Shown one piece after another: positions 7,172 through 25,924 of a stretch of DNA of 32,000 nt. The DNA lies in the NCBI RefSeq assembly GCF_018336915.1, contig NZ_CP064923.1, positions 4,470,001-4,502,000 on the forward strand, written 5' to 3'. The notes under the pieces were generated by a model. It saw nothing but the letters and a program-made list of their open reading frames with translations. It searched no databases and was not told where the DNA came from. How positions within the stretch are numbered: position 1 is the stretch's first letter; the number at the start of each line of letters is the position of its first letter. The translations under genes were made by a program, and so were the position numbers. The stretch is from Acaryochloris marina S15 (GTDB lineage: Bacteria; Cyanobacteriota; Cyanobacteriia; Thermosynechococcales; Thermosynechococcaceae).

Positions 7172-7187
7172 ATTTCAAGGAGAAATT

Positions 7188-7352: not shown

Positions 7353-8058
7353 GGTTTGAGAGTGCAAGACGATCCATGAACAAGCCCTAAAAGATCTCTC
7401 TTGTAGGGCTTCTATAAACTTATTTAGATCAATTTATATACCAGAAATACAGGTCAGTAAAAATCATTATCTACACCTTATCAAGTATGATCAATCTACT
7501 ATTTTTAAGCTCAGTTTGACAGCAATACTTTCAGCATTTTTTTCTAGCAGCAGAATGAATAGAACCATAACAATCCTCCCATTAGTTCTTTGATATAGCA
7601 ATCTGAAATCAATCGTGAGATGTAGAGAGGCTGAAATCTTTACCAGTATCCATTTAGGTTGAATATAATTCTCACAACTCACGTCAGATCGCTATAGGTC
7701 CTTGATCATAGGTTTATCACTCTATTCCCAAAATATTGCGTAAGGCTGGTAGTTGATGAGCTTGTAGAAACTGAAAATTAGAATAATTCAAGCTCTTAAA
7801 CGGGACTTGCCGCCCATGTTCCACTCCTACACTAAATTCTTCTAGCTCCCTTTGACTTAAACAATAAGGACTAGGGTAAAGAAACCGAGCAACAAATTGA
7901 AATAGCACGAGATGAAACCCATGGGTATTTGGATCATTGCCCATTGCGAATCCCAGAACATAGGCCTCTCCAAAGGAGTCAAACCCTTTTTTCAACCTTA
8001 ACGAGGGACAAGGTCGCCGTAGGCTATACGTGGCAGAAGCTTGAGAAAATAGTAGGGC

Positions 8059-8087
8059 AAAAAAATAGGGAGTACGATTGTACTCCC
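8059..8087 (-). terminator. intrinsic terminator, minus strand
   Basis: Read on the minus strand: gggagtac-aatc-gtactccc (8-bp stem, 4-nt loop, 8068-8087), followed by TATTTTTTT (8059-8067). No T-run follows it on the plus strand. Confidence 0.55.
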
Positions 8088-9678
8088 ATCTCAAAAAATG
8101 TTCCCTGCATCATACCAAACTACTCTCCGTGCTCAGTCATGTGGATTGTCAACCGGAATGTCAAAATATTCTTTTTAATTCCAACAAAAACTAAACCCAA
8201 ACTCTAAATAATGACAAAGATGGGTAAATTTGATTGGAATACCTATTCTGTTCAACTTAGATATCTAGCCTTGCAATCTATGACCTCCAATAGTCTAATT
8301 TGGAAGAAAAGTTTATTGAAATGACTTCCTCGACATTCAGTCATTCGTAAGTCATAGTCGTAACTACGCTACATATTCCTCATTCGTTATAGAAAAAGGT
8401 CTGTGCCCTATACATCTGAAAGTGGTCAGTATACTGCTCACATCGCTCGGACCTGGGTCACAGTAGTGGAAAGTTGTCGATATTGTCTTTCCGTAAGTTA
8501 TTTCTTCCTGTTGAATTTTTTCTTTGTGATAGGGCTATTTAAGATATTTGCAAAGGGGTATTTGGATATCCTAATTTGTATTCCTCACCCTTTTGAAAAG
8601 TAGCCCGAATCCGTCCAATTAGTTTTCGAGCAACAGCAACAATGGCCTTCTTCTTTCCTGTCCTTGGGAAAAGTCGGTTAAAAAACTGAGCTAGAGCTTG
8701 GTCTTTCTCAATGGCTCTCCAAGCGATCTCAATGAGGATACTTCGGACTTGAACATTGCCCTGATGAGTAATATGTCCCCTACGGATCGCTTCACCACTG
8801 GAATGTTCACTGGGGGTCAGACCTGTGTATGAAAATAACTGGCGTTCGTTCTTAAACTGAGACATATCCCCCAACTCATTCGATAATACCCGAGCAGACT
8901 GTGGCCCAACACCTGGAGCAGATCGGTAGGTCTTTTCGTTAGGATCTTCTTTGGCTTGTTGTTTGAGTTCTTGCTCAATCTTTTTGATTTCTTCGTCTAG
9001 ACTTTTCCAGACATTCCAATAAGCATTAATCACAATTATCAATTCTTTGGATGTTGCATTAGCCAGAATTTCTTTGACAAGTTTATGAGTCATTTCACGA
9101 GTTTCATCGGCATCAATTAAACCAAATTGATGAAACTTCATCCTGATTTTATTCTTTATCGCAGCGCAATCTTCAACAAGCTGTTTTCTGGTCCGACTCA
9201 ATAATCGATGTGCTTCTTCTTCCTCACTGGGAATGCGAATTCCCTTTAAGCGTTTTGCTTCCAAAAGCGAAGATAGTTTAAGTGCATCACGTTTATCTGT
9301 TTTGACCCGGTTATTGATAGCAACTTCAATCCCGGCGGCATGCACTACTAGGTTCTGGATCCCATGCGCCTTAAGTTCTCGATGTAACACAAAACCTGAA
9401 AAACCAGCTTCATAAGCACTATAGATCGTGGCACCATCAAAATATTTGAGGAGTTGTTGGGCTAATGATTTTGGAGAGGCTTTCGTTGTCCATTTCTTGA
9501 CGACCTCCTCCTCGACCCTAGCAACAACTGTATAAGTCTTCTTGTGTACATCAATCCCAATGAAGACTTCTTTCCCAACGTAAGATCTTTCTTTCGTATT
9601 CTTCTTCATGATGGAACTCCTTGATATCTAATCAGAGAAGTAAATGTATCCCTAGTATTTAGGCTTGCACCTTGTTGA
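8088..9678 (-). mobile_element. IS110-family element; both ends approximate
   Basis: IS110-family elements lack classic IRs and target duplications, so the ends cannot be read from one copy. The right limit is constrained by the IS4-family reading frame, which starts by about 9679-9700. The left limit is set provisionally at the minus-strand terminator. Confidence 0.35.
8539..9609 (-). CDS. IS110-family DEDD transposase/recombinase
   Basis: N-terminal FIGIDVHKKTY, YEAGFSGF and KTDKRDA motifs. C-terminal PGVGPQSARVL...YTGLTPSEHSSGE..RRGHITHQGN..VRS is typical of IS110/IS116/IS902 transposases. AAGGAG lies 7 nt upstream of the ATG. Confidence 0.9.
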   Translation of the reverse strand: MKKNTKERSYVGKEVFIGIDVHKKTYTVVARVEEEVVKKWTTKASPKSLAQQLLKYFDGATIYSAYEAGFSGFVLHRELKAHGIQNLVVHAAGIEVAINNRVKTDKRDALKLSSLLEAKRLKGIRIPSEEEEAHRLLSRTRKQLVEDCAAIKNKIRMKFHQFGLIDADETREMTHKLVKEILANATSKELIIVINAYWNVWKSLDEEIKKIEQELKQQAKEDPNEKTYRSAPGVGPQSARVLSNELGDMSQFKNERQLFSYTGLTPSEHSSGEAIRRGHITHQGNVQVRSILIEIAWRAIEKDQALAQFFNRLFPRTGKKKAIVAVARKLIGRIRATFQKGEEYKLGYPNTPLQIS

Positions 9679-10016
9679 GTGCTTTGCAATCCATCATAGA
9701 AACATCTGAGTGAAAGTCAGTATCTAACCCTCCAACTTCTGTTGTTACTGATACAGGCTCATCGCCAGGTAAAACTCTCCATATTGGCCAGTGTCTTTCC
9801 TCAACCGATTCAATATCCCAGTCGAAAACGTAACTTGCAACGCTTTTTAGTATTGCCACAACTGAGCATCAAAGTTTTGTGGTTCCCCCTGATTAAATAT
9901 TGGATTCGACAAGAGCAAACAGGACGAGGATTAAATCGGGAGCATCGTCGTCGGCTGAAGAAATTCAAACATCGAAAATATGGCTATTGGATCATAGCGA
10001 TAGATAGAACCCAATG
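9679..10016 (+). pseudogene. IS4-family DDE transposase, N-terminal part (interrupted)
   Basis: Translation is ...KHLSESQYLTLQLLLLLIQAHRQVKLSILASVFPQPIQYPSRKRNLQRFL...YWIIAIDRTQW, which includes the first catalytic D (AIDRT). There is an in-frame TAG at 9697-9699 if the GTG at 9679 is the start. The frame is broken after 10016 by an IS insertion. Confidence 0.7.
10008..10016. repeat. 9-bp target-site duplication aacccaatg, left copy
   Basis: The identical 9-mer occurs at 12998-13006, immediately outside the two IS termini. Confidence 0.85.
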
Positions 10017-10174
10017 GGGCGTAAGCAAAGGATCGGGGATGCATGGCTCAAAGAAAAACGGGTCAAGGACAATAGATCCTGTACCCGAACCAAAAAACTA
10101 TCATGACCCTACCATCGCAATTGCTAACCGTGCTAGCCCATGACGAATTTCTAGAACAAACTGAAGCACTCAAA

Positions 10175-10183
10175 GTATCAACC
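10175..10183. repeat. 9-bp target-site duplication gtatcaacc, left copy
   Basis: Repeated at 11670-11678. The uninterrupted inner copy carries this 9-mer only once, at 10342-10350. Confidence 0.85.
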
Positions 10184-11669
10184 GGGCGTAAGCAAAGGAT
10201 CGGGGATGCATGGCTCAAAGAAAAACGGGTCAAGGACAATAGATCCTGTACCCGAACCAAAAAACTATCATGACCCTACCATCGCAATTGCTAACCGTGC
10301 TAGCCCATGACGAATTTCTAGAACAAACTGAAGCACTCAAAGTATCAACCAGCCTGAGTCAGATGGTTTATATCGTTCTGCAAATGGGCTTGTTTCTAGC
10401 TCGCTGTCTTCTGGAGGATGAACTCTCAAGGCGCGCGAAAGCAGTATTTGTATGGCCTGTATGTACTACCTGCGGAACCCGCTTACATTCGAAGGGATGG
10501 GAATCTCGTCAGATGCAGACACTGGTAGGCACTATCTCTTGAAAGCGACGGGTGGGCCGTTGTCCCAAAGGATGTCCAGGCAGTCTGTTGACTCCCCTGG
10601 ATCAAGCCATTGGGATTGCCCCCTATCAGCACAGCAGCGAAGAACTGGTGCGTCTGGGCTGCTTGTTGAGTCTGTTCATGCCCTATGAACTGGCCAGTTG
10701 GATGCTGGGTCAGTGGAGTGGTCTATCCGTGAGTCCATCCAGTTTGTGGAACTGGGTGCAATCCGTGGGTAACAAAGCTCAGCAGGAATTAGAAGCTCAA
10801 CTCAACGCTCAATCATCAGGGACTCAGGCCCCTTGTGAAGCGATTTCAGAGATGTTATCTGCTCTACCTTTGGCCATTGCCGCCGATGGTGTGATGGTCC
10901 CCTTTCGCCCCACCCCGAACTCACCCAAGGGAAAAATCCAGTGGCGAGAAGTCAAAGTCGCCATCTTAGCTCGCCTGGGAACACGGGTTACCCGAGCTAA
11001 AAAGGAGGTCCCCCAATTACTGCGTCGAAGACTGGTGGCAGTATTGGGCGATATCGACCAGTTCATCCCTTTACTTCAACTCGAAGCTCACAAACAAGAC
11101 TTTGAATCTGCTCCAAAAGTCATCTGGCTCAGTGATGGGGGACGAGGCTTCTGGCGAGTCTATCGCACCTTGTTCTCTCATTGTGCTGTGGCAGTCCTCG
11201 ACTTTTTTCATTCAGCAGGCCATCTGGCACGAGCAACTAAAGCGATGTTTGGAGATGCCCGCTCTGCTCAAGCCCAAGCCTGGTTCCGGCACTGGCGACA
11301 CCAATTGCGACACGGGCAACACCTACTTGTATTACGGTCCTTGACGATATTGATTCACTCACAACTGTTAACGGGAAAGTCTTTTTCAACGTTGCTCCAG
11401 GTGCAGGCTTATTTCCAACGCCATCATAACCACATCCGTTATCGGCACTTTGAACAGCAACAGATTCCTCTCGGGTCAGGAATGGTTGAAAGTGCATGCA
11501 AGTGGTTGATTCAGCAGCGCTTTAAGGGAGTTGGCATGCGCTGGAGTGAGGATGGTTTCAACCATTTACTGATCTTGAGAATTGCCTGGGTCAATGAACG
11601 GTTTGACTCCTTATTCCCAGAGGTGACCATTCCGAAAACTAAGGCATCCCCGATCCGCTAAATACGCCC
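10184..11669 (+). mobile_element. inner, structurally complete ISKra4-like IS copy (1486 bp)
   Basis: It has the same IR pair as the outer copy and is flanked by gtatcaacc on both sides. It is inserted after codon 27 of the outer copy's transposase. Confidence 0.85.
10270..11661 (+). pseudogene. ISKra4-like DDE transposase with one in-frame TGA (10540-10542)
   Basis: Track ORFs 10270-10542 and 10552-11661 are in the same frame: ...CTTCGTRLHSKGWESRQMQTLVGTIS*KRRVGRCPKGCPG... The Cys-rich N-terminus is followed by a DDE-type core (AADGVMVP, WLSDGGRGFW, GSGMVESACKWLIQQRFKGVGMRWS). The stop sits where a Trp (TGG) would fit. Confidence 0.7.
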
Positions 11670-11678
11670 GTATCAACC
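11670..11678. repeat. 9-bp target-site duplication gtatcaacc, right copy
   Basis: Immediately follows the inner copy's right terminus (...aatacgccc, ending at 11669). Confidence 0.85.
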
Positions 11679-12989
11679 AGCCTGAGTCAGATGGTTTATA
11701 TCGTTCTGCAAATGGGCTTGTTTCTAGCTCGCTGTCTTCTGGAGGATGAACTCTCAAGGCGCGCGAAAGCAGTATTTGTATGGCCTGTATGTACTACCTG
11801 CGGAACCCGCTTACATTCGAAGGGATGGGAATCTCGTCAGATGCAGACACTGGTAGGCACTATCTCTTGAAAGCGACGGGTGGGCCGTTGTCCCAAAGGA
11901 TGTCCAGGCAGTCTGTTGACTCCCCTGGATCAAGCCATTGGGATTGCCCCCTATCAGCACAGCAGCGAAGAACTGGTGCGTCTGGGCTGCTTGTTGAGTC
12001 TGTTCATGCCCTATGAACTGGCCAGTTGGATGCTGGGTCAGTGGAGTGGTCTATCCGTGAGTCCATCCAGTTTGTGGAACTGGGTGCAATCCGTGGGTAA
12101 CAAAGCTCAGCAGGAATTAGAAGCTCAACTCAACGCTCAATCATCAGGGACTCAGGCCCCTTGTGAAGCGATTTCAGAGATGTTATCTGCTCTACCTTTG
12201 GCCATTGCCGCCGATGGTGTGATGGTCCCCTTTCGCCCCACCCCGAACTCACCCAAGGGAAAAATCCAGTGGCGAGAAGTCAAAGTCGCCATCTTAGCTC
12301 GCCTGGGAACACGGGTTACCCGAGCTAAAAAGGAGGTCCCCCAATTACTGCGTCGAAGACTGGTGGCAGTATTGGGCGATATCGACCAGTTCATCCCTTT
12401 ACTTCAACTCGAAGCTCACAAACAAGACTTTGAATCTGCTCCAAAAGTCATCTGGCTCAGTGATGGGGGACGAGGCTTCTGGCGAGTCTATCGCACCTTG
12501 TTCTCTCATTGTGCTGTGGCAGTCCTCGACTTTTTTCATTCAGCAGGCCATCTGGCACGAGCAACTAAAGCGATGTTTGGAGATGCCCGCTCTGCTCAAG
12601 CCCAAGCCTGGTTCCGGCACTGGCGACACCAATTGCGACACGGGCAACACCTACTTGTATTACGGTCCTTGACGATATTGATTCACTCACAACTGTTAAC
12701 GGGAAAGTCTTTTTCAACGTTGCTCCAGGTGCAGGCTTATTTCCAACGCCATCATAACCACATCCGTTATCGGCACTTTGAACAGCAACAGATTCCTCTC
12801 GGGTCAGGAATGGTTGAAAGTGCATGCAAGTGGTTGATTCAGCAGCGCTTTAAGGGAGTTGGCATGCGCTGGAGTGAGGATGGTTTCAACCATTTACTGA
12901 TCTTGAGAATTGCCTGGGTCAATGAACGGTTTGACTCCTTATTCCCAGAGGTGACCATTCCGAAAACTAAGGCATCCCCGATCCGCTAA
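11679..12989 (+). pseudogene. outer-copy ISKra4-like transposase, 3' portion
   Basis: The first 27 codons lie at 10103-10183. The translated ORFs are identical to those of the inner copy at a +1328 offset. The same in-frame TGA is at 11868-11870. Confidence 0.75.
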
Positions 12990-12997
12990 ATACGCCC

Positions 12998-13006
12998 AAC
13001 CCAATG
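12998..13006. repeat. 9-bp target-site duplication aacccaatg, right copy
   Basis: Immediately follows the outer copy's right terminus (ends at 12997). Confidence 0.85.
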
Positions 13007-13856
13007 GAAAGGTCGCAATATATTCATGGTGAGTATCATTTGGGGAACCCATGCTCTTCCCCTGTATTGGGAAGTTTTAGAGCATGTGGGTAATAGTCAT
13101 CTAGCCACTCAACAACGGCTCTTAAAAACAGTGCTACATCTGTTTAAGAATTATCCGGTTCTTGTCCTGGGAGATCGAGAGTTCCATAGCCCTAAACTAG
13201 CTGACTGGCTTGAGTCTGAGGGTGTATCTTTTGCTTTAAGACAGAAGAAAGACGGTCATTTTCAAGAGGAAGTCCATCAAGAGTATCAGGTGCTCAAACA
13301 GCTGGGCTTTAAACCGGGAATGTCTAAATTCTATACAGGTGTTTTGTGCAACAAAGGAGATGGCTTAGGGCCATTTAATCTGGCTGTCTATTGGAAACGC
13401 AAATATAGAAATAAGGGGCCGAAAGAGCCTTGGTATATCTTGACCAATCTGCCGAGTCTCAAACAAGCACTGGACATTTATTCTTGTCGCTGGGGAATTG
13501 AACAACTTTTCAAGGATTGTAAGACAGGAGGTTATAACTTAGAAGATACGAAAGTGAATGACACCCGATTTCTGGCCTTAGTTTTGTTGATTGCCATGGC
13601 TTATACCTTAGCTACGCTGCATGGGCAATGGATGAAAAAATTAGGAGTGGATATTTATGCTGGACGAATTAAAGAGCATAAAGATACGACTCAACGGCAG
13701 AGTGAATTTAGTCTTGGATTATATGGGCAACGATGGATTTATGCCATGGAATTGTGGGCTGATTGGGTGCAAAGTCTGATTGCGCTTAAACCCCATAAAC
13801 GCCTCTATTTTCAGAGAGGGTTCTCTGCTCTATCCCTTATAAAACAGGCTTTGTAG
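13007..13856 (+). pseudogene. IS4-family DDE transposase, C-terminal part
   Basis: Joining 10016 to 13007 restores ...AIDRTQW|KGRNIFMVSIIWGTHALPLYWEVLEH... The second D is in VLGDREF. The IS4 signature Y-x2-R-x3-E-x6-K appears in YSCRWGIEQLFKDCK. Confidence 0.8.
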
Positions 13857-13875
13857 CTTCGTTGTCATCCGCTAA

Positions 13876-14031
13876 GGTCTCTACTCAAAGTATTATGCTG
13901 ATTTTCCCGCCTTCAAAGGGGCCATTCAACAGTGCCTTGACCAGTGCAATGGAGAGCACAAGGCGAAACTAACAAGCCTTCTATCACTCAAGTTTCAGTC
14001 CTTTAAAGAAGTTAATATCTTAGCCGTCTAG
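13876..14031 (+). pseudogene. possible C-terminal remnant of an IS630-like transposase
   Basis: The open frame reads GLYSKYYADFPAFKGAIQQCLDQCNGEHKAKLTSLLSLKFQSF... This resembles the ...N.YY..F.eF..a....l......L.sLlt.nFq tail I recall from IS630/DDE_3 transposases. It has no start codon and begins at the IS4-family element's right edge. Confidence 0.3.
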
Positions 14032-14208
14032 AGTATATTAGATTGGTTTTATTTACAAGAGAGATAATTCTCCAAGAGCATGACTAAATCACGCTCATAG
14101 TCTGAACTGAAATTTTACGTAGGAGCTATCTACTTTGGCTCATTATTAAGTACTAAAGTTGAGCTAAACAGTGTGATTTAAAGCTTTTTTTATCCAACAA
14201 TATTTCGT

Positions 14209-15252
14209 CTAATTCAAAGATCTTTTTACTAATATTGCCCCCAAAATTGCTCCAATAACGGGACCATTAAGCGCACGATTTACCAACATATATTGACTTG
14301 TAGTATTGTCAATCACTCCTATAAATAGACTCCAAAATATAATTGAAATAAAGAGAAATACAAAACAACGGCGATTTACACCAATAAGTACACCTGAAAT
14401 TGCTCCAGAAACAATACCAATATATACTCCCGCTGCTAGAGGATATATAACATCGATATTTAAATATTTTGTCACTGTTGCTCCATAAATAAAGCCTGCA
14501 AGACTGCCGACAATTGCACTATCTTGCCTTGTTCGCCAAGTTATTTTTTTAAGGTGATGATTTGAATATGGTGGATATTTTCTAGTATTTGAAAGATCAT
14601 TAGAAGGTTGTATTTTTTTGTCAATATTGTCAATTTCTTCGGCAATAACAGCACAAATATCTATTCTTTTCCTAAATTTTTCTAACAGGATATGTACATC
14701 CTTCTCAAGTTCGGGCTCATTCAAACTTCTTTTCAGATCGACAAGTATAGATTTTTGTTCATCATAACTTAGAATTGTTGCACCAATCTTTGTAGCAAGG
14801 TCTACGATGTAAGAGATTGGAACTTCTGGAGGTATAGGTAGGGGGTTAGTCAGAGGTTTAGAATCTGGAAGATTAGCAAGAGCTCTAGCTAAAGCTAAAG
14901 CAGCATTGTGATCTTTTTGTTGGTAGTCTATAGCTTGAATTTGCAATAAGGTAGTTGGCAAGAGATTAATGGAAACTCCATCAGCTGCGAGAATCGGTAA
15001 AATTGGCTTACCCAGTTGATTTGCATAGTCATACTCGCGTAAACAAGCAGTTGATTGTAGTGATTCTGGTGTTAGTACAAAAACAAATAAGTCACACGTC
15101 CTGATATTTAAGAGGATTTGATCCCACCAAACTTGGCCTCCACTCAATTCCTGATCAAACCAGATAGTGTGGCCGAGAGATTCAATAGCATCTGCTAAGT
15201 CTTTCACTATAGTCTTGCTTTTATGGTTATAGCTGATGAATGTTATTGTCAT
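14209..15252 (-). CDS. TIR-domain protein with C-terminal multi-pass glycine-zipper membrane domain
   Basis: The N-terminus ITFISYNHKS...GHTIWFDQELSGGQVWWDQI...CDLFVFVLTPESLQSTACLREYDYA...GKPILPIL shows a TIR_2-like pattern. The conserved Glu is present (E73, codon 15034-15036). A helical linker follows, then 3-4 TM segments (aa about 245-345) rich in GxxxG/A. The gene is visibly AT-rich compared with the core genes. Confidence 0.8.
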   Translation of the reverse strand: MTITFISYNHKSKTIVKDLADAIESLGHTIWFDQELSGGQVWWDQILLNIRTCDLFVFVLTPESLQSTACLREYDYANQLGKPILPILAADGVSINLLPTTLLQIQAIDYQQKDHNAALALARALANLPDSKPLTNPLPIPPEVPISYIVDLATKIGATILSYDEQKSILVDLKRSLNEPELEKDVHILLEKFRKRIDICAVIAEEIDNIDKKIQPSNDLSNTRKYPPYSNHHLKKITWRTRQDSAIVGSLAGFIYGATVTKYLNIDVIYPLAAGVYIGIVSGAISGVLIGVNRRCFVFLFISIIFWSLFIGVIDNTTSQYMLVNRALNGPVIGAILGAILVKRSLN

Positions 15253-15273
15253 AACTCTTCTAAATACTCAGTC

Positions 15274-15296
15274 TTTATAGAATTTGTTTCTATAAA
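15274..15296. promoter_or_regulatory. 9-bp inverted repeat upstream of the TIR gene
   Basis: tttatagaa (15274-15282) and ttctataaa (15288-15296) are exact reverse complements with a 5-nt spacer. They lie 22-44 nt upstream of the ATG at 15252. This could be an operator or a 5'-UTR hairpin; function is not established. Confidence 0.25.
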
Positions 15297-15498
15297 TTCT
15301 AGGTTATTCAATTATTTTCACCTATATTAGACTTCTTGAAATATTCAGTTTACGATATGCTATCGATTTAATTCATGAGCCAACTTTGCATGCTGATTGC
15401 CTGACAGAAGTAGGTCAAAGCCTTTATTTACATAGTTTATGAGAAAAGAGTGGAGAGACATGTGAGGCTAGATTTAATCACAAATCAGCGTTATTCAA

Positions 15499-16134
15499 AT
15501 GTCAGGCCCCACCCAAATTTATCGTCAACTGTTTTCCTTTTTACGTCAACACAGCCATTATCGAGATTTGCGCCATCTCATTGCCCTGGGCTGGATGGTA
15601 AGCGCCTTAATCTGTAGTGAACGCTTAAGCTTATCTGCCTGGGAATCCTATGTTCCCTGCCGAGCCAGAAAAGCCCAAAGTGTCGAGCGTCGGTGGCAAC
15701 GATTTATAGCCAATCAACGCATTGATATTAACAAGCTATATGTACCTCTAGTCCTGCTAGCCCTTAAGAACTGGCAATCTCATCGTCTATACCTGGCAAT
15801 GGATACAACGGTGTTATGGAATGAATATTGCATGATTCATCTATCCGTCGTCTGCTGTGGCAGAGCAGTACCGTTGTTGTGGAAAGTATTAGAGCACAAG
15901 AGTGCAGCTGTCGCTTTTGAGGAATATCAACCGCTATTGCGCCAGGCCCGTTGGTTATTGCGGCAGCATCCAGATGTCATGGTGTTAGCAGATCGTGGGT
16001 TTGCGAACCATCAACTGATGAGCTGGTTACAACAGAGCCATTGGCATTACTGTCTGCGTGTCCCTTGTGATGTGGCTCTTCTCTGGCAACCGAGACAGAT
16101 CACAGTGGATTCCATTACAGCAGTGTTTAGATAG
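15499..16134 (+). pseudogene. truncated IS4/IS701-like DDE transposase, N-terminal about 200 aa only
   Basis: Shows ...RDLRHLIALGWMV...SVERRWQRFIAN...RLYLAMDTTVLW...GRAVPLLWKVLEHKSA...VMVLADRGFANHQLMSWL..., so the first two catalytic Asp regions are present. The YREK/E-containing C-terminal half is missing. Confidence 0.7.
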
Positions 16135-16198
16135 AACTGAAGTCGTCATCTGAATAAACTTCGCCGATAATGAATTCAAGTGAGTAAGGGTTATCCCC

Positions 16199-17455
16199 AT
16201 GCAGCGATTTAAAGTGCTTTTGCCTGCCTTGACTGTAGGAACTGCTTTGGTAATGGTGCAACCAGCCCAAGCGCTATCTGGAACAGAGGTGAATCAAATT
16301 GCCAAAGAGTCCACCATTTTGGTGAAAGGCCAAAATCCTGGTTCAGGAGTGTTGGTGGGGAAAAAGGAAAATACTTACTATGCCCTCACGGCAGAACATG
16401 TGGTTGCCACGCCTGACGAGTACGACATCGTGGCCCCAGATGGGACAGAATATGCCTTGAATTATCAATCGGTACAGAAGCTGCCGAATGTAGATTTAGC
16501 ACTGGTGAGTTTTACGAGTAAGCAGTCTTACTCCTTGGCAAAACTCGGCAACTCTGATCAGTTAACAGAAGGTGATAAGGTCTTTATTTCAGGTTGGCCT
16601 GCATCGGGTAGTGCCTTGCCCCATATCTATCAATTCACATCTGGCGAAATTTCCGGCCTGCCGCCCCAATCCATCGGCAAGGGTTACAAGATGGTGTATA
16701 CCAACGTCACCCGAGCAGGGATGAGTGGCGGACCTGTCTTTAATGATGATGGCAAAGTGGTGGGCATTCATGGCTTAGCCGAAGGGAGAGAGGTGGTCTT
16801 GCCGGGTTATCAAGGCGACCGCAGCGTGATTAAAGCTGGGTTCAATTTGGGAATACCCATCAATACCTTTGTACGACTATCCAAGAAGATGGAGGCTAAG
16901 CCCCAGGAGACTCCACAACCCATTCCAGCACCCATTCAAGAATCAACAGCGGTAGCGCAAGTGATCGATGCACCTGCTCTCCCAGCCCTCCCCAGAGGCC
17001 CAAAGGTTACTTTTGATCGCCCCCCTCAGCTTGTCAGCACTTCTACAACAAATCGAGATGCTCGATCTCTAGGAGCCACTTACTTCTTTACGATTGATAT
17101 TCCGCCAGATGCCGCTCAACCGTTGCAAAAGGTGGAGTTTATTTTGAAGCAAGGGGTTCAATATCCCCGTTTTAAGGCAACTTCTGTGAAAGCATTTGAG
17201 GGGACAAAGCGGAATAAGGGTGAGGCATTGCCGATAAATATCGTGGTCAGTGATCCATCCATTCGGACGTTAACAGTCACGTTTGATAGACCTATTGCTC
17301 CAGGCCAGACAATTACGATGGCTGTTCGCCCAGTGCGGAATCCTTCGGTGGGAACCTATATGTTTGAAGTGCGAGGGACACCTGCTGGATCTACTGAAAG
17401 CCAGTATTTAGGTATTGGTCGTCTCGATTTTTCCCGCAGTTCACTGGGGAAATAA
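16199..17455 (+). CDS. secreted trypsin-like (S1) serine protease fused to a DUF2808-like C-terminal domain
   Basis: Signal peptide (...VMVQPAQALSG). Catalytic triad context: LTAEHVV (His), NVDLALV (Asp), TRAGMSGGPVF (Ser). A Pro-rich linker is followed by a C-terminal domain (FDRPPQLV...YFFTIDIPPDA...VTFDRPIAPGQTITMAVRPVRNPSVGTYMFEV) that matches my memory of cyanobacterial DUF2808. Confidence 0.8.
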   Translation: MQRFKVLLPALTVGTALVMVQPAQALSGTEVNQIAKESTILVKGQNPGSGVLVGKKENTYYALTAEHVVATPDEYDIVAPDGTEYALNYQSVQKLPNVDLALVSFTSKQSYSLAKLGNSDQLTEGDKVFISGWPASGSALPHIYQFTSGEISGLPPQSIGKGYKMVYTNVTRAGMSGGPVFNDDGKVVGIHGLAEGREVVLPGYQGDRSVIKAGFNLGIPINTFVRLSKKMEAKPQETPQPIPAPIQESTAVAQVIDAPALPALPRGPKVTFDRPPQLVSTSTTNRDARSLGATYFFTIDIPPDAAQPLQKVEFILKQGVQYPRFKATSVKAFEGTKRNKGEALPINIVVSDPSIRTLTVTFDRPIAPGQTITMAVRPVRNPSVGTYMFEVRGTPAGSTESQYLGIGRLDFSRSSLGK

Positions 17456-17513
17456 ATCGTGTCTAACACAAAGAGTTGCAATGTTAAGGCCATGAATAAT
17501 CGTGGCAGAATGC

Positions 17514-17557
17514 CTGAATAGTGATTAACCTTTACAAATTAGTTAATCACTATTCAG
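17514..17557. repeat. perfect 16-bp inverted repeat with 12-nt spacer
   Basis: ctgaatagtgattaac (17514-17529) is the exact reverse complement of gttaatcactattcag (17542-17557). It lies between the protease gene and the IS6-like fragment. Confidence 0.7.
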
Positions 17558-17624
17558 ACAGAAGTATGGCATCTAGTTATCAGTACATGAACCAGCGGGA
17601 GCATTTAAACAGAAAGTTACAGTT

Positions 17625-17810
17625 TTATCTGAAATTTTTTACTGGTATGACGTCCAGATCGGATTTATTGAATTCGGGGTAATTGAAGGGAGTGTCTGTA
17701 CGCCCATTGTAAGTTCGATGGCATCGCTTACAGCAGAACATGGCATAACCGAAATTGGTTGTACGCTGAAGAAATGAGACTCGATTTGAATGGCAGTGAG
17801 GATAATTCAT
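17625..17810 (-). pseudogene. IS6-family transposase, N-terminal zinc-finger fragment
   Basis: MNYPHCHSNRVSFLQRTTNFGYAMFCCKRCHRTYNGRTDTPFNY... matches the CxxC...CxxC...ERTGTPFN N-terminus I recall for cyanobacterial IS6 transposases. The DDE domain is absent, and degenerate traces may continue to about 17560. Confidence 0.55.
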
Positions 17811-18016
17811 GAAAGGAAGGCAGAGTATAGCTTAGAAAAAATAATCGGCTTGTCAGGCGAGCGATGATTCCTCAATTTTTGCTACTCAAGGCTAACGGTT
17901 TCCCATATCTAGGGCTACCACGCAAATTTCCGGAGAGCCAATTCTTTGAAGATATTGAACCTGCTATGGTCTAAGCTTTTCCCTATGACACTCAAATACC
18001 TCATGAATAATCCAAA

Positions 18017-21000
18017 CTAAGTATCCATTAGCCGCATCAAGAGATCTTTTACTCTTTGACAAGTGTCCTTGTAACTACTGAGTTCAATCAGAGAATCAAG
18101 TTGATCAAAAGCTGAATCTTTTTCTCGTTGAGTACGACCCGTCCCTTTCGTCCAAGCCAGATAATAGGCTTTTGCGATATCTTCTACAGATGCTTCTGAC
18201 TCATGGATACTTAAGTAGCGAAGCAGAGCTACTTCTGCGAGAGCAGCCTGACTCCATTCATCATCGTGGGATTTAGCACTCTTCTCGATCTCCTTCAACT
18301 CTTTATCGATATCGCGATTGGGATCGAGGCAGAGGTCTAAGGCCACTTGTTGGGAAAGTGGATAGTAGAGATTTTCAGGTTTCTGACCACAGGCAGCTGC
18401 ATAAGCATTTCGAGCCTCTTTAATACGTGGTTTACGCACATCTTTAGGGGCTGTCTTTGCTAATCGTTTTAAGATTGATCCCAATAAGCTATAGCGTTCT
18501 GATGATTCTTGAATTGCCAATAATCCATTTATCTGGTCTTGCGCACTGGCGAACCAGCTCTCTGCTTTGTCCTTTTGTTTTGGCGTTAAAGGAGGTTGAT
18601 GAGGGATAGGTTTTAATATTTGTTCGGCAGCACGAGCTTTCATATTAACGAGCCGCTCAATAGCCTCAATCGGAGCTTTCGATGTTTCGATCGCTTTTTC
18701 ATACCAAAAGACAGCCTCAGCATAATAGCCTAAGTCAGAATAGGCTTTACCAAGTCCAGACGTGATTTCACCTTTATGTTGCCATTGAGGATCTATATTT
18801 TGAGCTAATTCGTCGAGTTGGCGCTTAAGGCTCAGACGTTTAAGGTCATCCGCACCATTCGCTCGTTGGGAAAAATCTTGAAGATGTTCTTGGAGTTCAT
18901 CTGGGGAGACAAACACATGATTGTGAAACTGAGTGGGATTACGACGATCCACCCAGTAAAACGTAAATCCTGGATCTCCATAGACTTGATAAGCTCCCCA
19001 GGTTAAGTCATTGGGGCTACCAGTATTGTAGGTGGCAGCACGAGCAAGTCGTACTGCGTTCATCAGGGTATTACCTCCAATCAACTGTTCATAGAGGTTT
19101 TTTGCAAAGACTTGAGCAGACTGATCTCCCACAGCCCATCCCGCCACAACCACGACGCCAACCCCCATCTCAATCAACTTTTGAGCTAAACTCGCGGCTA
19201 AGTGACCCGGTTGGGAGTTGCGGCCCAAACTCCCTTCACCTAATTTTCCTAAATGGCAGCAATTCAAAAAGACAATGGAGGGTACTGCTTTCAGATTTTT
19301 AAACTCACCCGTCGTGAGGAAATCCTCTTGTCCAATCAAAACACCTGACTTAGAAGGGTCTTCTGCGTTGTAATCACCATGAGCGGCAATGTGAATAATG
19401 TCATATTCATCTTTATATAAAGCCTTGAAGATAGATTTAGTATCTGTGCCAATCTGACGTTCTGGTTTGATGTTAGATTTTTCTAGATAGTCAGCAATAG
19501 CTATGGCTTCTTTCTTTGCACCAGGCAGTTGTGGATTAACACCTACTGGATCACCAATGACTAAGGCTTTGCGACCTGAGGCTCTACGCGGATTTTCTCT
19601 ACATTCAGGGGTAGACAACGTTCTGAGCACACCAACTCGGACCCCTAAAGGCAATTGCCCAGAAGTTTTATCATGATCAGGGTCGAGTAATTCCCAAGGA
19701 ATTCGAGCCGTGTGACTATCTAATCCTAAGACCAAGTCTGGCGTATCTAAAGCATTATCTAAGAACTGATAGGGAAGCAAGTATTGGAATAGAGTTGCGC
19801 AAGAACAGATAGGATCTGTCATCGATTCTGATAATAGATTATCCACATACTTCCACTGGATTATGCGGATGTAGGGTTCACTGCGTGCCATATCTGTAGT
19901 GACGAAAAACTTTAACCCCTCATATTTGTCATAGTTTGTGATCTGAATTCTCCGGCTCCAACCTGCGCCATAAGGAGAAATGGGACGACTGCTGCGACCA
20001 CTAGCTCTAATATTAAGTTTTGATGTTACATCAACTTCCTGTTCATGACGGATCCGTAGCGTTTGCGCTGCATGTCCAGCATTGATCGCAATATCTCGGT
20101 AGAGTTCGACTATTTCAATGCACCGAATTTGGACACAGTTACCCAGATGTTTTTCGGTCAAAATATGATTAGTCGTTAGGGCTGCATTGAAAATCGAGGA
20201 AACTGATTCTTCCACAGTAATGCGTGATCCGCCAAAGCTGCCGATAAGGATACTGCTTAGACTGAGTTCATTGAGTGGGGCTGCGTCTTCTGGGATATGG
20301 CGTAATGCATATTCCAACATGGCAGAAACGAGATCACCTTCTAAAGAAAGCTTTTGGAGTTTCCCGACTTCACCTAACCCCGTGACAATAACACCGCCTT
20401 TAAGGTTTTCTGTTGTGTCATAGATCCGCACTGTTCCATGGGGCCCAGGATAACGCCCAATCTGGAGATCACGGGACATCGTCCCACCGATGGCTTTGTC
20501 TAATACAGATTCAACGCTGACGATGGGATCTCCGATATAATGACCGGCGATAACGGGATATTTTGCTTCACGAATATCAGCGTTTGTAACTTCTAGTTTG
20601 ATTGGCGCTGTAAAATCCGGCTGAAGTTCCCAGGCCCGACCCGCGATCGCCTCAAAGATATCGGCCTCATTCGGATACACTCGGAGTTCGAGTTCTTGCT
20701 CTTCTTCTGCTAAGGTAAATAGCTCTGTTTCAGTATCCCGCTGAATTACAGGGGGACTATTCGAAAGCTTATTGGTTCTACCGTCAGATAGTAGTTCTAG
20801 ATAGCCGTCGAAGGCGGGTGGATAATTGGGGAGTTGACCATGCTCGGCATCCACATAGTAGGTCTCCACTTTGGGAAGCCGTCCAAGTTCCCAGGGCACG
20901 GCACCATCTCCACGACCAGTATAGCGAAACGTCACTTTGTTGTCCGCTTTTTCCATCGTTGTGGGAGTGGCCTTATCATGACCTGCCACATAGACCATAT

Positions 21001-23233
21001 AGTCGGCATCAATAGCTTGATTGAGTCGTTGCCGAAACGCTTTGGCGTTCTCCAGTATTGTTGGATCGGGACGATATGCTTCGAATCCATTCCAGCTTTC
21101 TGGAGTGATCAAATCAAAGGCTTTTTCGGCACCGTCCTCCTCTAGGGTTTTATAGGGCAGCATTTCCATCAAACCAGGAAAATCCCGTACTAGCACAGTT
21201 AAATCCTTAAGCGAATTCCTTAGGTCAACTTTGGCTAGGGTTTGGAGGAGCTTATGTTTTTGCGTGACGACCTGGGCGGGCACATAAGAACCATAGTTTG
21301 GAGTTCCTAACATGACAAGTCGTCCGCCACGTTGCGTCATTTTTTCCCATACGCGTGGATATTCTGACAGGATAGACCGAGCTACAAGCCCTCCCATGGA
21401 ATGAGCAAGGATGCGAATTGGCTGTTGATGATTAGATAGTTCTGCCTTAATCTGCTCAACTAACAATGCTGCAGAGTCCCGAATAGGGATTCGCCAGTCA
21501 AAGTCAAAGGTTAGGACGTCATAATGTTTAATAAGCCTATCGTAGAGTCGCTCATAGACTAGATTAATGAGGCCATCAGGCGAAATCTGATCTTGATAAG
21601 GTTCTTCTTGATAAATCTTTCCTGTATCAATTTTTAGTTTGCTTATACCTCCAAACGCAATACGCCCTGGGTGAATCCATTGTCGATCACTATCGTGGGC
21701 TAAATGTGAGCCCATAATGCCGGGTAGGAAGAACAACACAGGTCGCTCTCCTGTGGTGGGCTTGTTATCGGGAATTGCACGTGTGCTATTTCCTCTTAAT
21801 CCGCCATAATCATCATTAGAACGAAGCGGAGAAAATCCTTCTTTTTTGTCTTCTAACCAGCCCACGATGGGGATGCGGGTAGCATCTTCCTTAAAGTAAG
21901 AGAAATGATCAGCATGGGGGCCGCGCGCATATAGGCCCCAGGCATTTTCGCGGGGGACACCGCGAAACATGGATTTGCTATCAACCACGAGGTCGTTATC
22001 TTCGCGATAATAGAGATTTGCAAAGAAGGCTTTGACTCGAGTCAATGCCCCTCCTTCAGAAAGATCTCCCGCGATAATCCCAATCTCCTGCTTTTCATCT
22101 AATGCTTTGGCAGAGTTTAGAAAGGGGATATAGCCTTTATCCATATGAGGCATCATGGCCTCAAGTCCTGGGAGTTTATCGGCTTTAGTGCGCGTTTTAA
22201 TAATCGTTAATGCGGTGGCTTTGATAAATTCATAGGCAGCTGCAGCGGCGGGGCTAGTTAGTTTACCTACTAATGTAAGGATAATGTTGAGGTAAGTATC
22301 TGCTCGCTCAGATGCCAGTAGGGTGCCCGCAGCTGGAGAGGCCACTCGAACATATCGCTCAATTTTAACGTCTTTGTTTTTTCGTTGGTCTCTAAACTGG
22401 TTGAGTTGTGCTTGAGCATCGGGATAGGTACTCTGAGGGAAGAATTGTTCGACTTCCTCATTTTCCCAATCTGGACGACAGAATAAATCTCCAATCAATC
22501 CACCTCTGGAATAGGTGAGTAAATGTAATTTAGCTCCCTGGGGAAGTTCTGAGAGAATTTGAAGCGCATTGTCAACAGGACTTTTAGTGACCGTAAAGTG
22601 CTCTAAGGCAAGGACATGCCCCTCTACATAACCTTGATAGAGTCGCTTCCATTCGACAGAAGTGAATAACTTATCAAAAGAGCCAGCAGTGGAACTGAAA
22701 GTACCATGAATTAGGACAAGATAGGGGTCTGGAGAGACTTGAAGATCGTGGGCGAAAGTTGTGCGCACTCCATCTGGGCCAAGATGGTAGAGCCCTGGCT
22801 TCTCCATGTGTCGTGGTTCAAGTGTCTGGGCAATAATTGTGGTGGCGTCTTCTGTTGCTTTCTCTATAAAGCTGCTCTTGATGCGTTTAATGATATTGAG
22901 ACCAATATCTGCTAGACCTCTGTTAGTTCCACCCATCGGTCTACGAGCGGGAACACTGATGGCGTCGTCACTGACGTCGCGGTTTATCTCACCATAGCGA
23001 GCATTGAGTTCATCGGCTCTAATCAGTTCAATAATCCCGTCTTCCCAGGTGAGTTCCAACACGTCATCAGGTTGGACATCATCAATGACAATGCTTTGAT
23101 GAGTACCTCGGCTGCGGGAAAGACTGACATTGGTTTCTTCTTCGACCTGAAAGATATCAGCATATGTCTTGAAGGTTGGAGTAATGTCGTTAGATGGACG
23201 GAGTTCTCCTGGAAGACGGATTTTAAGGGTCAT
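18017..23233 (-). CDS. 1738-aa multidomain protein: two lipase-type alpha/beta hydrolase domains, an unassigned region, a CHAT (caspase-like) protease and TPR-like repeats
   Basis: Hydrolase 1 (aa about 165-470): LVLIHGTFSS, nucleophile elbow LTYSRGG (Ser242, 22508-22510), NDLVVDS, HADHF. Hydrolase 2, LCAT-like (aa about 500-800): FDFDWR, AHSMGGLV (Ser612, 21398-21400), GTPNYGS, GDGAV, AEHG. Unassigned region aa about 830-1160. CHAT: IIHIAAHGD (His1285, 19379-19381) and FLNCCHLG (Cys1325/1326, 19256-19261). C-terminus has TPR-like helices (GKAYSDLGYYAEAVFWYEKAIE). Confidence 0.9.
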   Translation of the reverse strand: MTLKIRLPGELRPSNDITPTFKTYADIFQVEEETNVSLSRSRGTHQSIVIDDVQPDDVLELTWEDGIIELIRADELNARYGEINRDVSDDAISVPARRPMGGTNRGLADIGLNIIKRIKSSFIEKATEDATTIIAQTLEPRHMEKPGLYHLGPDGVRTTFAHDLQVSPDPYLVLIHGTFSSTAGSFDKLFTSVEWKRLYQGYVEGHVLALEHFTVTKSPVDNALQILSELPQGAKLHLLTYSRGGLIGDLFCRPDWENEEVEQFFPQSTYPDAQAQLNQFRDQRKNKDVKIERYVRVASPAAGTLLASERADTYLNIILTLVGKLTSPAAAAAYEFIKATALTIIKTRTKADKLPGLEAMMPHMDKGYIPFLNSAKALDEKQEIGIIAGDLSEGGALTRVKAFFANLYYREDNDLVVDSKSMFRGVPRENAWGLYARGPHADHFSYFKEDATRIPIVGWLEDKKEGFSPLRSNDDYGGLRGNSTRAIPDNKPTTGERPVLFFLPGIMGSHLAHDSDRQWIHPGRIAFGGISKLKIDTGKIYQEEPYQDQISPDGLINLVYERLYDRLIKHYDVLTFDFDWRIPIRDSAALLVEQIKAELSNHQQPIRILAHSMGGLVARSILSEYPRVWEKMTQRGGRLVMLGTPNYGSYVPAQVVTQKHKLLQTLAKVDLRNSLKDLTVLVRDFPGLMEMLPYKTLEEDGAEKAFDLITPESWNGFEAYRPDPTILENAKAFRQRLNQAIDADYMVYVAGHDKATPTTMEKADNKVTFRYTGRGDGAVPWELGRLPKVETYYVDAEHGQLPNYPPAFDGYLELLSDGRTNKLSNSPPVIQRDTETELFTLAEEEQELELRVYPNEADIFEAIAGRAWELQPDFTAPIKLEVTNADIREAKYPVIAGHYIGDPIVSVESVLDKAIGGTMSRDLQIGRYPGPHGTVRIYDTTENLKGGVIVTGLGEVGKLQKLSLEGDLVSAMLEYALRHIPEDAAPLNELSLSSILIGSFGGSRITVEESVSSIFNAALTTNHILTEKHLGNCVQIRCIEIVELYRDIAINAGHAAQTLRIRHEQEVDVTSKLNIRASGRSSRPISPYGAGWSRRIQITNYDKYEGLKFFVTTDMARSEPYIRIIQWKYVDNLLSESMTDPICSCATLFQYLLPYQFLDNALDTPDLVLGLDSHTARIPWELLDPDHDKTSGQLPLGVRVGVLRTLSTPECRENPRRASGRKALVIGDPVGVNPQLPGAKKEAIAIADYLEKSNIKPERQIGTDTKSIFKALYKDEYDIIHIAAHGDYNAEDPSKSGVLIGQEDFLTTGEFKNLKAVPSIVFLNCCHLGKLGEGSLGRNSQPGHLAASLAQKLIEMGVGVVVVAGWAVGDQSAQVFAKNLYEQLIGGNTLMNAVRLARAATYNTGSPNDLTWGAYQVYGDPGFTFYWVDRRNPTQFHNHVFVSPDELQEHLQDFSQRANGADDLKRLSLKRQLDELAQNIDPQWQHKGEITSGLGKAYSDLGYYAEAVFWYEKAIETSKAPIEAIERLVNMKARAAEQILKPIPHQPPLTPKQKDKAESWFASAQDQINGLLAIQESSERYSLLGSILKRLAKTAPKDVRKPRIKEARNAYAAACGQKPENLYYPLSQQVALDLCLDPNRDIDKELKEIEKSAKSHDDEWSQAALAEVALLRYLSIHESEASVEDIAKAYYLAWTKGTGRTQREKDSAFDQLDSLIELSSYKDTCQRVKDLLMRLMDT

Positions 23234-24407: not shown

Positions 24408-24452
24408 AACGTGAGTTCGCGATCTTACGGATTCATTATTTTTAGAAGCGCT

Positions 24453-24496: not shown

Positions 24497-24531
24497 TGCA
24501 AGTCTTGATAGATATAGAATCAAGACTTGCA
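24497..24531 (+). promoter_or_regulatory. 13-bp perfect inverted repeat in the IS4 5' leader
   Basis: tgcaagtcttgat (24497-24509) and atcaagacttgca (24519-24531) are exact reverse complements with a 9-nt spacer. They lie 26 nt upstream of the transposase ATG. A role in damping read-through expression is inferred only. Confidence 0.4.
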
Positions 24532-24556
24532 ATCCATCAATAATCTGCCTTCTACT

Positions 24557-25924
24557 ATGTCTCAGTCAGCCGAAATTCTCAAGCATCAGTTTTCCCAAAG
24601 CCTGGGATTGCCCTGGACGGATATTCTTCCCGCTTCAAGGCTGACCGACATCCTAGCAGAGGAATCAATCTCCTATCGCAACCGTGTGTATACGCCCATC
24701 GTTACGTTGTGGGCCATGCTCTACCAAGCATTATCTGCAGACAAAAGCTTGCGCAACACGGTCAAATGCATCACCACCTGGCTCACTGCCGCAGGACTCC
24801 AACCCCCATCATCAGATACAGGAGCCTACAGTAAAGCCCGAGGAAGATTACCTGAGTCCCTGCTGCAAAGGTTAATTCCCGAAACTACTAATCACATAGA
24901 GCAAAGCATTCCCCAAGAACACCACTGGTGTAATCGAACAGTGAAAGTCTATGACGGCACGACAGTGCTGATGGCTGATAGTGCGGCGAACCAAGGGGAG
25001 TATCCTCAACATGGCAATCAGGCTCCTGGCTGTGGATTCCCCATTGCCCGTTTAGTGGTGTTTTTTTGCTTAATCACAGGGGCAGTGGTCTCAGCCTGCA
25101 TTGCCCCCTGGAGCATGAGTGAAATCGTCATCAGTCGGCTGCTTTATGAGGATCTGGAGGTTGATGATGTGGCCATAGCAGATCAAGCCTATGGCAGCTA
25201 TGTTGATCTAGCCCTGATTCAACAACAAGGAGCCGATGGGGTTTTACGTAAACATCATGCCCGTCATACAGACTTCCGTAAAGGACGTAAGAACGGGATA
25301 GGAGACCACCAAGTTCAATGGCAAAAGCCCACACGGTGTCCCGCCCACATGAGTGCAACGGAGTTTGCAGAGATTCCCAAAACGTTGACAGTCAGGGAGG
25401 TATCGCTACGTCTATCGCGTCGAGGCTTTCGAGACCAGTTCATTATCGTCGTCACAACCTTACTGGATGCTCAGCGCTATAGTGCTAAACAATTGACTCG
25501 CTTGTACGGATGGCGATGGCAGGCGGCTGAAGTCAATTTGAGACACCTCAAAACCACCTTAAAGATGGAAATGCTCACGGCAAAGACACCTGAAATGGTG
25601 CGCAAGGATATTTGGTCTCATTTGCTAGGCTACAACTTATTGAGAAGTCTCATGGAACAGGCTGCCCCATGGGCAGAATATGACCGCTCTCGACTCTCTT
25701 TACAAGGGGCTCGACAACACTTTAATCAGATGCTGGTTTTGTTAGCAACGGCCACACAAGCTATACGTCAACGGTTGTATGCTCATCTGCTTGAAAATAT
25801 TGCTACTGACCTTCTGCCTGTTCGACCCCATCGGCTCGAACCCAGGGTCGTTAAACGAAGACCTAAGCCCTTCCCCAGAATGCGACAACCGCGCTCTGTC
25901 CTCAAAGCCAATCTGGCTGCTTGA
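24557..25924 (+). CDS. IS4-family DDE transposase
   Basis: I prefer the ATG at 24557 over the TTG at 24527 used by the track. Motifs: VKVYDGTTVLMADS (D), AIADQAYGSY (D), LYGWRWQAAEVNLRHLK (YREK-like region). Confidence 0.9.
   Translation: MSQSAEILKHQFSQSLGLPWTDILPASRLTDILAEESISYRNRVYTPIVTLWAMLYQALSADKSLRNTVKCITTWLTAAGLQPPSSDTGAYSKARGRLPESLLQRLIPETTNHIEQSIPQEHHWCNRTVKVYDGTTVLMADSAANQGEYPQHGNQAPGCGFPIARLVVFFCLITGAVVSACIAPWSMSEIVISRLLYEDLEVDDVAIADQAYGSYVDLALIQQQGADGVLRKHHARHTDFRKGRKNGIGDHQVQWQKPTRCPAHMSATEFAEIPKTLTVREVSLRLSRRGFRDQFIIVVTTLLDAQRYSAKQLTRLYGWRWQAAEVNLRHLKTTLKMEMLTAKTPEMVRKDIWSHLLGYNLLRSLMEQAAPWAEYDRSRLSLQGARQHFNQMLVLLATATQAIRQRLYAHLLENIATDLLPVRPHRLEPRVVKRRPKPFPRMRQPRSVLKANLAA

Follow-up and report, generated by a model that had tools for sequence, protein, structure and literature searches.

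We analysed a gene encoding a 347-residue TIR protein in a 32,000-nucleotide (nt) stretch of Acaryochloris marina S15 (NZ_CP064923.1, positions 4,470,001–4,502,000; assembly GCF_018336915.1), which we refer to as the window. We found that the protein consists of an N-terminal TIR domain with a predicted NADase-type catalytic motif, a proline-rich and helical module that matches no Pfam family and no known structure, and a tail of four predicted transmembrane (TM) helices (Table 1), and that it belongs to a large family in which a strongly conserved head carries exchangeable C-termini. The gene is a TIR-based single-gene module. An initial annotation of this DNA had described it as a stand-alone, acquired gene for a TIR domain fused to a TM tail, all of which holds, and had further proposed a role in defence and a pore-forming tail, both of which are unproven. 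As predicted from its sequence, the protein probably cleaves NAD+ and acts as a self-contained stress or anti-phage switch.

The assignment of the N-terminal ~125 residues to the TIR fold was confirmed by profile and by structure. Pfam TIR_2 (PF13676) matches residues 5–117 with 73.7 bits against a cut-off of 28 (E=2.4e-20). In an AlphaFold2 model of the window protein, built on 56 sequences (predicted local distance difference test score, pLDDT, 83.6), this region has a pLDDT of ~90 and the beta-alpha-beta-alpha-beta order of the flavodoxin-like alpha/beta TIR fold. The top PDB matches found with Foldseek were SPARTA TIR-APAZ, the MyD88 TIR and the SARM1 TIR; the last two, which are stand-alone domains, had target-normalised TM-scores of ~0.7. 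The catalytic glutamate, E73 (codon 15034–15036), is retained, as had been claimed; it lies in the alpha-C motif S67-x-A69-C70-x-x-E73 (SxxCxxE), aligns with the catalytic glutamate of TIR-APAZ and of Cat1 in profile alignments to the PDB, and is kept without exception in 56 homologues and another 52 sequences. In the BB-loop motif, W31-F-D33-x-x-L-S-G38-G39-Q40-x-W42-W43, residues W31, D33, G38-G39-Q40 and W42-W43 are likewise invariant in the 56 homologues.

When the family profile was compared with the PDB, the best matches were SPARTA TIR-APAZ (2.9e-8), Cat1 (8.4e-6) and SARM1 (2e-3), and the nearest relatives of solved structure are all NAD+-consuming effector TIRs. Among PADLOC models, the best match was the short-Argonaute TIR (Aga_TIR, residues 5–112; 3.8e-7), and ThsB models reached only 9e-4 to 3e-2. 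The NCBIfam model for Thoeris type III ThcB4 (12.8 bits against a cut-off of 220) and Pfam CAP12-PCTIR_TIR (E=0.038) both stayed below their cut-offs. Judged by sequence and model, the window protein is a member of the TIR superfamily with an NADase-type catalytic motif.

The most distinctive feature of the protein, which the initial annotation had missed, lies directly behind the head. It begins with an invariant proline-rich stretch (consensus PLPxPLPxPPEVPxSYLG), followed by helices at residues 147–156, 163–176, 180–194 and 201–214. The mean column identity of this module is 73% in 42 sequences from many phyla. The window protein (as record P0001) scores E=3.2e-29 on the module profile and departs from the near-invariant SYLG, having SYIV in its place. 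Residues 127–215 have no Pfam match, and the modelled C-terminal half of the protein found no Foldseek match in PDB or BFVD (best E 0.4–0.8). The module is a new, well-defined domain without a structural or Pfam relative.

The tail had been described as a glycine-zipper segment with several TM helices, and both AlphaFold2 and hydropathy bear this out. The model has helices at residues 239–263, 269–290, 296–314 and 320–346 (pLDDT ~80–90), which in the prediction pack into a compact four-helix bundle; the hydropathy scan gave strong segments at 268–293 and 296–316 and two weaker glycine-zipper helices. GxxxGxxxG zippers are present in TM1, TM2 and TM4, with the conserved motifs GGAIxGAIxG and GAPxGAILGAIxG. 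Positive charges are found ahead of TM1 (KK/R/R), behind TM2 (NRR) and at the end of the protein (KR), and an N-in/C-in topology with very short outside loops fits the sequence of the tail. The glycine zipper is a motif only and does not amount to family membership, as Pfam Gly-zipper_YMGG gave 12.9 bits against a cut-off of 28.9 (E=0.095). No SLATT domain was matched in the window protein by Pfam or NCBIfam, and Foldseek detected no likeness of the tail to known pore-formers (best E=0.8).

The initial annotation did not recognise the fusion as a described system. The architecture is not a one-off. A word-indexed family search gave 216 matches, the best 120 of which all had E<1e-66, and the window protein aligns over its full length with many members (98–99% coverage, 40–50% identity). 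When the module profile was run against 1.84 billion cluster representatives (clusters at 50% identity), 1771 matched at E<=1e-3, 951 at E<=1e-10 and 99 at E<=1e-30, which puts the family at ~1000–1800 clusters. In the best 150 module matches, the module almost always occupies residues 127/128–213/214, directly behind a TIR-sized head, and a TIR head was present in every one of the 233 full-length members examined. The only annotation these proteins carry at present is 'TIR domain-containing protein'. We found no searchable open-access paper on a TIR domain fused to a glycine-zipper or multi-TM tail, or on the middle module.

We then compared what follows the module in the 222 members with a tail of at least 60 residues. 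One or more TM segments were found in 202 of them (91%) and none in the other 20; half (111/222) have glycine-zipper tails like that of the window protein, and 34 have a single TM helix with more than 100 further residues. Pfam searches with 52 members that carry an ectodomain or lack a TM segment identified FGE-sulfatase (7), Sel1 (7), SH3_3 (4) and Lcl_C (4) domains, as well as TPR and HEAT repeats. Only 100 of the 222 members share their tail class with the member that has the nearest head (mean identity 74%); 34% would be expected by chance. Among close relatives, the C-terminus is freely exchanged behind a strongly conserved head.

The family is widespread and rare. A scan of one genome per species (185,579 species) yielded only 64 distinct loci, which are scattered over more than 12 phyla, and head identity between the window protein and members from other phyla is 50–61% (Planctomycetota, Chlorobia, Acidobacteriota, Gamma-, Beta- and Zetaproteobacteria, Campylobacterota, Bacteroidota and others). 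Family genes form tandem pairs at loci L019 and L040, and probably also at L029 and L032, where the second members are short. Three metagenome-assembled genomes (MAGs) each have two separate loci (L007/L024, L030/L042 and L008/L017), and the tails differ in the pairs that were compared. Paralogues with differing tails suggest small repertoires with different inputs. The GC content of family genes is a median 2.2 points below that of their flanks; in 22 of 60 loci the gene falls below its flanks by more than 3 points, and in 2 it exceeds them by more than 3.

We called open reading frames (ORFs) in 68 fetched loci and clustered all the proteins. No partner gene is conserved across the 64 genome loci of homologues, in agreement with the earlier remark that an adjacent sensor, NTPase, cyclase or ThsA-like partner is absent. 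Nor is there a Thoeris effector gene (SIR2-SLOG, Macro-TM, SLATT or caspase-like) beside the window gene, whose flanks are insertion sequence (IS) elements, and neither flank holds a credible ORF for a small partner or immunity protein. Leaving aside other family genes and the ABC ATPases described below, the only recurrent neighbour of the relatives is a SLATT_1 gene, found in 4–5 of ~61 homologue loci. The neighbour is a SLATT_1/DUF4231 protein of ~145 residues with two TM segments (L019, L023, L026 and L037; 129–144 bits against a cut-off of 41 in Pfam and NCBIfam). Its gene stands directly behind the TIR gene in L023 and L037, in operon order with gaps of 4 and 15 bp, and is divergent in L019 and L026. 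The TIR proteins at these loci keep a TM segment of their own, a single helix, together with TPR or Sel1-like regions. The adjacency indicates that at least some TIRs of the family work with a membrane effector. A cluster of ABC ATPases present at 11 loci was taken as chance, this being a very large superfamily and the distances and orientations varying. We also considered a diversity-generating retroelement beside relatives with FGE- or lectin-like tails; a motif search found no reverse-transcriptase-like neighbouring ORF, and PADLOC gave a single RT_UG4 match.

We tentatively propose that the window protein would be a self-contained, membrane-anchored TIR NAD+ glycohydrolase, with a tail that would supply the anchor and the input and is not a proven pore. 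The conserved cytoplasmic head would be the output of such a protein, and its C-terminal membrane part the anchor and input. The C-terminus reads as a variable anchor or input because the same slot in relatives with ~74% identical heads is filled by one TM helix and ligand-binding domains. The window tail lacks an ectodomain, so an input could act on it only within the membrane, via the packing or clustering of its glycine zippers. A membrane-level event, such as phage entry or lysis proteins, envelope stress or depolarisation, may alter this packing or clustering, and the altered tails may bring the TIR heads into the head-to-tail assemblies needed for activity. In TIR enzymes (SARM1, plant TIRs, SPARTA, Cat1 and TIR-STING) the active site forms only in ordered oligomers. 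The assembled TIRs would then cleave NAD+, with depletion of NAD+, possibly a product of the cyclic ADP-ribose (cADPR) type, and growth arrest or death as the outcome. A constant effector with a variable sensor is the usual layout of conflict systems.

It is possible, though doubtful, that the proposal extends to the family as a whole, which may then be an undescribed and widespread group of single-chain TM TIR receptors that combine a constant TIR-NADase head with interchangeable sensors and need no partner. The sensor modules would be the glycine-zipper four-TM tail in the window protein and FGE/lectin-like, Sel1, SH3 and TPR ectodomains in paralogues, an identification that is conceivable and open to question. 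Such receptors might respond with NAD+ cleavage to events at the membrane or beyond it; if so, their logic would make them a prokaryotic equivalent of Toll-like receptors (TLRs), a speculative suggestion made by analogy.

Several observations weigh against a defence enzyme of this kind. The evidence for a defence role, which the initial annotation had favoured, is weak, with little from the genomic context: the neighbours of the relatives are mostly a housekeeping mix with occasional toxin–antitoxin pairs or a second TIR gene, and only a handful of 144 neighbours match PADLOC models at E<=1e-10. The family was absent from the 50,697 phage records of INPHARED (tblastn) and from IMG/VR (pattern scan), and only one of 72,556 plasmid records carries it (tblastn; TIR and module in Mycobacterium sp. 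JS623). Defence proteins do not usually show conservation as high as that of the head. In addition, Pfam Nuc_deoxyrib_tr also scores, with weak similarity, in 13 of the 52 relatives mentioned above; because some members resemble nucleoside 2-deoxyribosyltransferases, the substrate might not be NAD+, other nucleotides being possible. Finally, the tail could be a plain anchor or a pore.

The pore was the initial reading of the tail, and it stands as one option only. It would make the gene a single-polypeptide 'Thoeris-like' suicide module, in which the TIR domain produces a nucleotide signal or oligomerises upon infection and the glycine-zipper tail is the pore effector, and we consider this rather unlikely. 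The glycine-zipper motifs are real, are present in all of the tail helices but TM3, and show conservation throughout the subfamily; TM effectors are, in the literature, standard partners of TIR and cyclase signalling; and the SLATT_1 genes next to family members reproduce the type VII Thoeris arrangement. However, because the SLATT-linked TIR proteins retain their own TM segment, the tail is not the effector at those loci. Moreover, the same slot in close relatives is occupied by non-toxic binding domains, the tail itself has no recognisable ligand-binding domain, and its modelled bundle is compact and unlike known pore-formers. A role outside immunity, as a membrane-associated enzyme or scaffold with a TIR fold (in NAD(P) or nucleotide turnover, or in envelope signalling) whose C-termini localise it or couple it to extracytoplasmic cues, we judge unlikely. 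It would agree with the housekeeping neighbours, the lack of phage carriage and single plasmid record, the weak nucleoside deoxyribosyltransferase similarity and the very strong conservation of the head, as well as with the proline-rich motif, which is suggestive of a fixed protein partner. It accords less well with a family that is patchy and rare across phyla yet highly identical between them, that occurs in tandem pairs and in MAGs with two loci and differing tails, and whose tails are freely shuffled; with a GC content below that of the flanks in a third of loci and, in the window, a strain-specific gene flanked by IS elements; or with a catalytic motif common to cell-killing TIR NADases.

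It is also possible that the gene is functionless cargo in A. marina S15, decaying or silent between IS elements. The gene is flanked on either side by IS elements, of which one is truncated; the upstream region showed no consensus promoter; and the protein is the most divergent member of its subfamily (the nearest relative has 50% local identity, 54% in the alignment), with SYIV for SYLG. Against this, the ORF is unbroken and of full length, all four TM helices are preserved, and the protein keeps each of the residues that are invariant across the 56 homologues, including E73 and the BB-loop motif. As every invariant residue is intact, a silent remnant is very unlikely.

The membrane-anchored NAD+ glycohydrolase that we propose shares features with several known systems. 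The closest TIR, both by profile and by Foldseek, is that of SPARTA TIR-APAZ (PDB 8qlo, 8qlp and 8oz6), an N-terminal TIR effector activated by oligomerisation, with which the position of the catalytic glutamate is shared. Unlike SPARTA, the window protein has no APAZ domain and no pAgo gene nearby, and has the helical module and four TM helices instead. Type VII Thoeris, a validated system of a TIR protein and the SLATT protein ThsH with a canonical cADPR signal (bioRxiv 10.64898/2025.12.03.692087), likewise combines a TIR enzyme with membrane-spanning helices, and is the arrangement seen beside the SLATT_1-linked relatives. The survey of TIR signalling systems that describes it explicitly discarded stand-alone TIR proteins (bioRxiv 10.64898/2025.12.03.692087). 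A P2-like phage, AC1, carries a TIR + 2TM + 1TM system (PMC9122126). Both of these systems are multigene with a separate TM effector, whereas in the window protein the TM helices are fused to the TIR domain, with no SLATT and no partner.

That one polypeptide can suffice for phage defence is known from E. coli, whose single-protein TIR systems (TIR-II, V, VI and IX) require the catalytic residue (PMC11350192). These systems and TIR-NLR/Avs are soluble, with a TIR domain only or with TPR or STAND regions, and no module or multi-TM tail has been reported for them; the E. coli proteins were compared by their published description. Effectors of Pycsar and CBASS (PycTIR, PycTM, TIR-SAVED and TIR-STING) also use TIR NADases or TM helices as abortive-infection outputs, but depend on a gene for a cyclase or CD-NTase and on a domain that senses nucleotides; neither was found for the TIR gene in the window. 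The layout of the family, with a cytoplasmic TIR domain, a TM segment, a variable extracytoplasmic binding domain and, in some genomes, several paralogues, resembles Toll-like and interleukin-1 receptors in architecture only. In contrast to these, its polarity is reversed (the TIR domain is N-terminal), the catalytic glutamate is kept and an ectodomain is lacking in the window protein; the likeness is not meant to imply common descent. The predicted output of the window protein most resembles that of effector-type TIR NADases.

The characterised bacterial TIR immune proteins in the literature that we found are soluble, and are either signal makers with a separate effector or effectors under a cytoplasmic sensor. 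According to a recent survey, the membrane-receptor features of TLRs seem to be absent from bacterial TIR systems (PMC11350192). If the family does sense at the membrane and signal through its fused TIR domain, it would represent a new input route for TIR enzymes, from the envelope or the cell exterior, a compact one-gene system in which to see how the packing of TM helices controls TIR assembly, and a testable bacterial analogue of TLR architecture. The real interest lies at the level of the family, whose many unannotated members are membrane-anchored TIR proteins that share a novel conserved module and have interchangeable membrane or extracytoplasmic ends.

The window is part of a cyanobacterial chromosome, with rbcL, rbcX, a Rubisco-activase-like gene and Raf1 at 26–32 kb. 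The product of the TIR gene is 100% identical to the A. marina TIR protein P0001/WP_212662786.1 and to a 347-residue record, P0121. WP_212662786.1 (332 residues) begins at the GTG codon of V16 and so loses strand beta-A with the conserved F5, S7 and Y8 (window 15208–15252). We take the ATG at 15252 as the true start because the N-termini of homologues (MxxIFISYNR) align in register with MTITFISYNH of the window protein. In the protein collection the identical sequence comes from one A. marina genome and two short contigs. The one-genome-per-species scan returned no A. marina locus, though the window protein contains one of the search motifs, which suggests that the gene is strain-variable.

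The gene was described as markedly AT-rich, and its GC content is indeed 35.7%, against 47.6% for the remaining window (12 points below its surroundings); it is the only gene of an AT-rich island. With its IS-flanked position and a record in a single A. marina genome, it looks like strain-specific, horizontally acquired cargo in an IS-rich region, as had been supposed. One argument for this origin did not stand. The gene does have no HIP1 site, but only 11 exist in the whole 32 kb (~0.3 expected per kb) and the entire interval 5160–20643 is free of them, so their absence from 1 kb is uninformative and was rejected as a sign of foreign origin for the gene alone. IS remnants had been noted on both sides. 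The one on the right is genuine, a truncated transposase oriented divergently from the TIR gene; the one on the left, at 13876–14031, is plausibly the non-coding end of the left IS4_2 element. We searched for the terminal repeats of both IS4-type elements and found weak matches only, which do not define the ends. An 18-nt imperfect inverted repeat (14002–14018/15324–15341) was considered as the ends of a mobile cassette and rejected, as 18 of 300 shuffles reached its score.

The perfect inverted repeat reported upstream of the gene is real. Its arms are TTTATAGAA (15274–15282) and TTCTATAAA (15288–15296), and when the 246-nt intergenic region was shuffled 500 times, an equal or longer repeat arose in 12 cases, which makes it mildly unusual; it is a possible operator or a hairpin in the 5′ untranslated region. 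A scan for promoters and terminators did no better than on shuffled sequence, and an Rfam scan of window positions 7000–24600 gave no matches.

Table 1. Features of the TIR gene and its surroundings in the window (strand: -, minus; +, plus;., not stranded).
Feature	Position	Strand	Evidence
Complete gene (TIR, helical module, four-TM tail), 347 residues	14209..15252	-	ORF list; ATG start; stop codon 14209–14211
TIR domain, residues 1–126	14875..15252	-	Pfam TIR_2; PDB profile matches; Foldseek; invariant residues
Family-defining module, residues 127–215: proline-rich linker (PLxxPLPxPPEVPxSY) and four short helices	14608..14874	-	Conservation; profile search
Variable low-complexity linker, residues 216–238	14539..14607	-	pLDDT <50 at 224–233; length variable, unalignable among homologues
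Predicted four-helix TM tail, residues 239–347	14212..14538	-	Hydropathy scan; AlphaFold2; conserved glycine motifs
Perfect 9-bp inverted repeat, 5-nt spacer	15274..15296	.	22 nt upstream of the ATG; sequence and shuffles
AT-rich island, sole gene the TIR gene	~14000..15490	.	Composition profiles, 24–44% GC per 100-nt window
Left flank: IS4_2-family transposase, C-terminal 276 residues	13026..13856	+	NCBIfam transpos_IS4_2 profile positions 74–340, E=1.5e-79
Right flank: second IS4_2-type transposase, truncated, N-terminal 211 residues	15499..16134	+	transpos_IS4_2 positions 15–156, E=6e-21; Pfam DDE_Tnp_1

Some further observations concern the surroundings of the gene. The N-terminal part of the left IS4_2 transposase is found at 9742..10143 (profile positions 1–64), separated from the C-terminal part by a nested pair of tandem ISKra4 copies. 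This pair is a perfect (100%) 1328-bp tandem duplication (10342–11669 and 11670–12997) with a 369-residue ISKra4-family transposase ORF in each copy. It stems either from a tandem insertion that happened very recently or from an error in the assembly. Just ahead of it is a perfect 167-bp tandem repeat (10017–10183/10184–10350). A second AT-rich stretch, 7001–10000 (36–43% GC), holds an IS110-family transposase of the RNA-guided type (8539..9609, minus strand) and an unannotated 125-residue ORF (7717..8094, minus strand); with the TIR island it makes up an IS-rich zone of ~9 kb.

On the other side, directly after the truncated IS4 fragment, 16199–17455 (plus strand) encodes a secreted trypsin-like serine protease fused to the cyanobacterial DUF2808, with a signal-peptide-like N-terminus. 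The gene at 18017–23233 (minus strand), 2.8 kb from the TIR gene and not a conserved neighbour of the family, encodes a 1738-residue protein with an alpha/beta-hydrolase region (DUF7379, LCAT-like), a CHAT caspase-like protease and a TPR-S sensor domain. Giant proteins of this kind are known from NTP-dependent conflict systems of multicellular bacteria (PMC7159879). Between this gene and an IS4_1-type transposase (24527..25924), the intergenic positions 23501–24000 have a strongly negative GC skew (-0.39).

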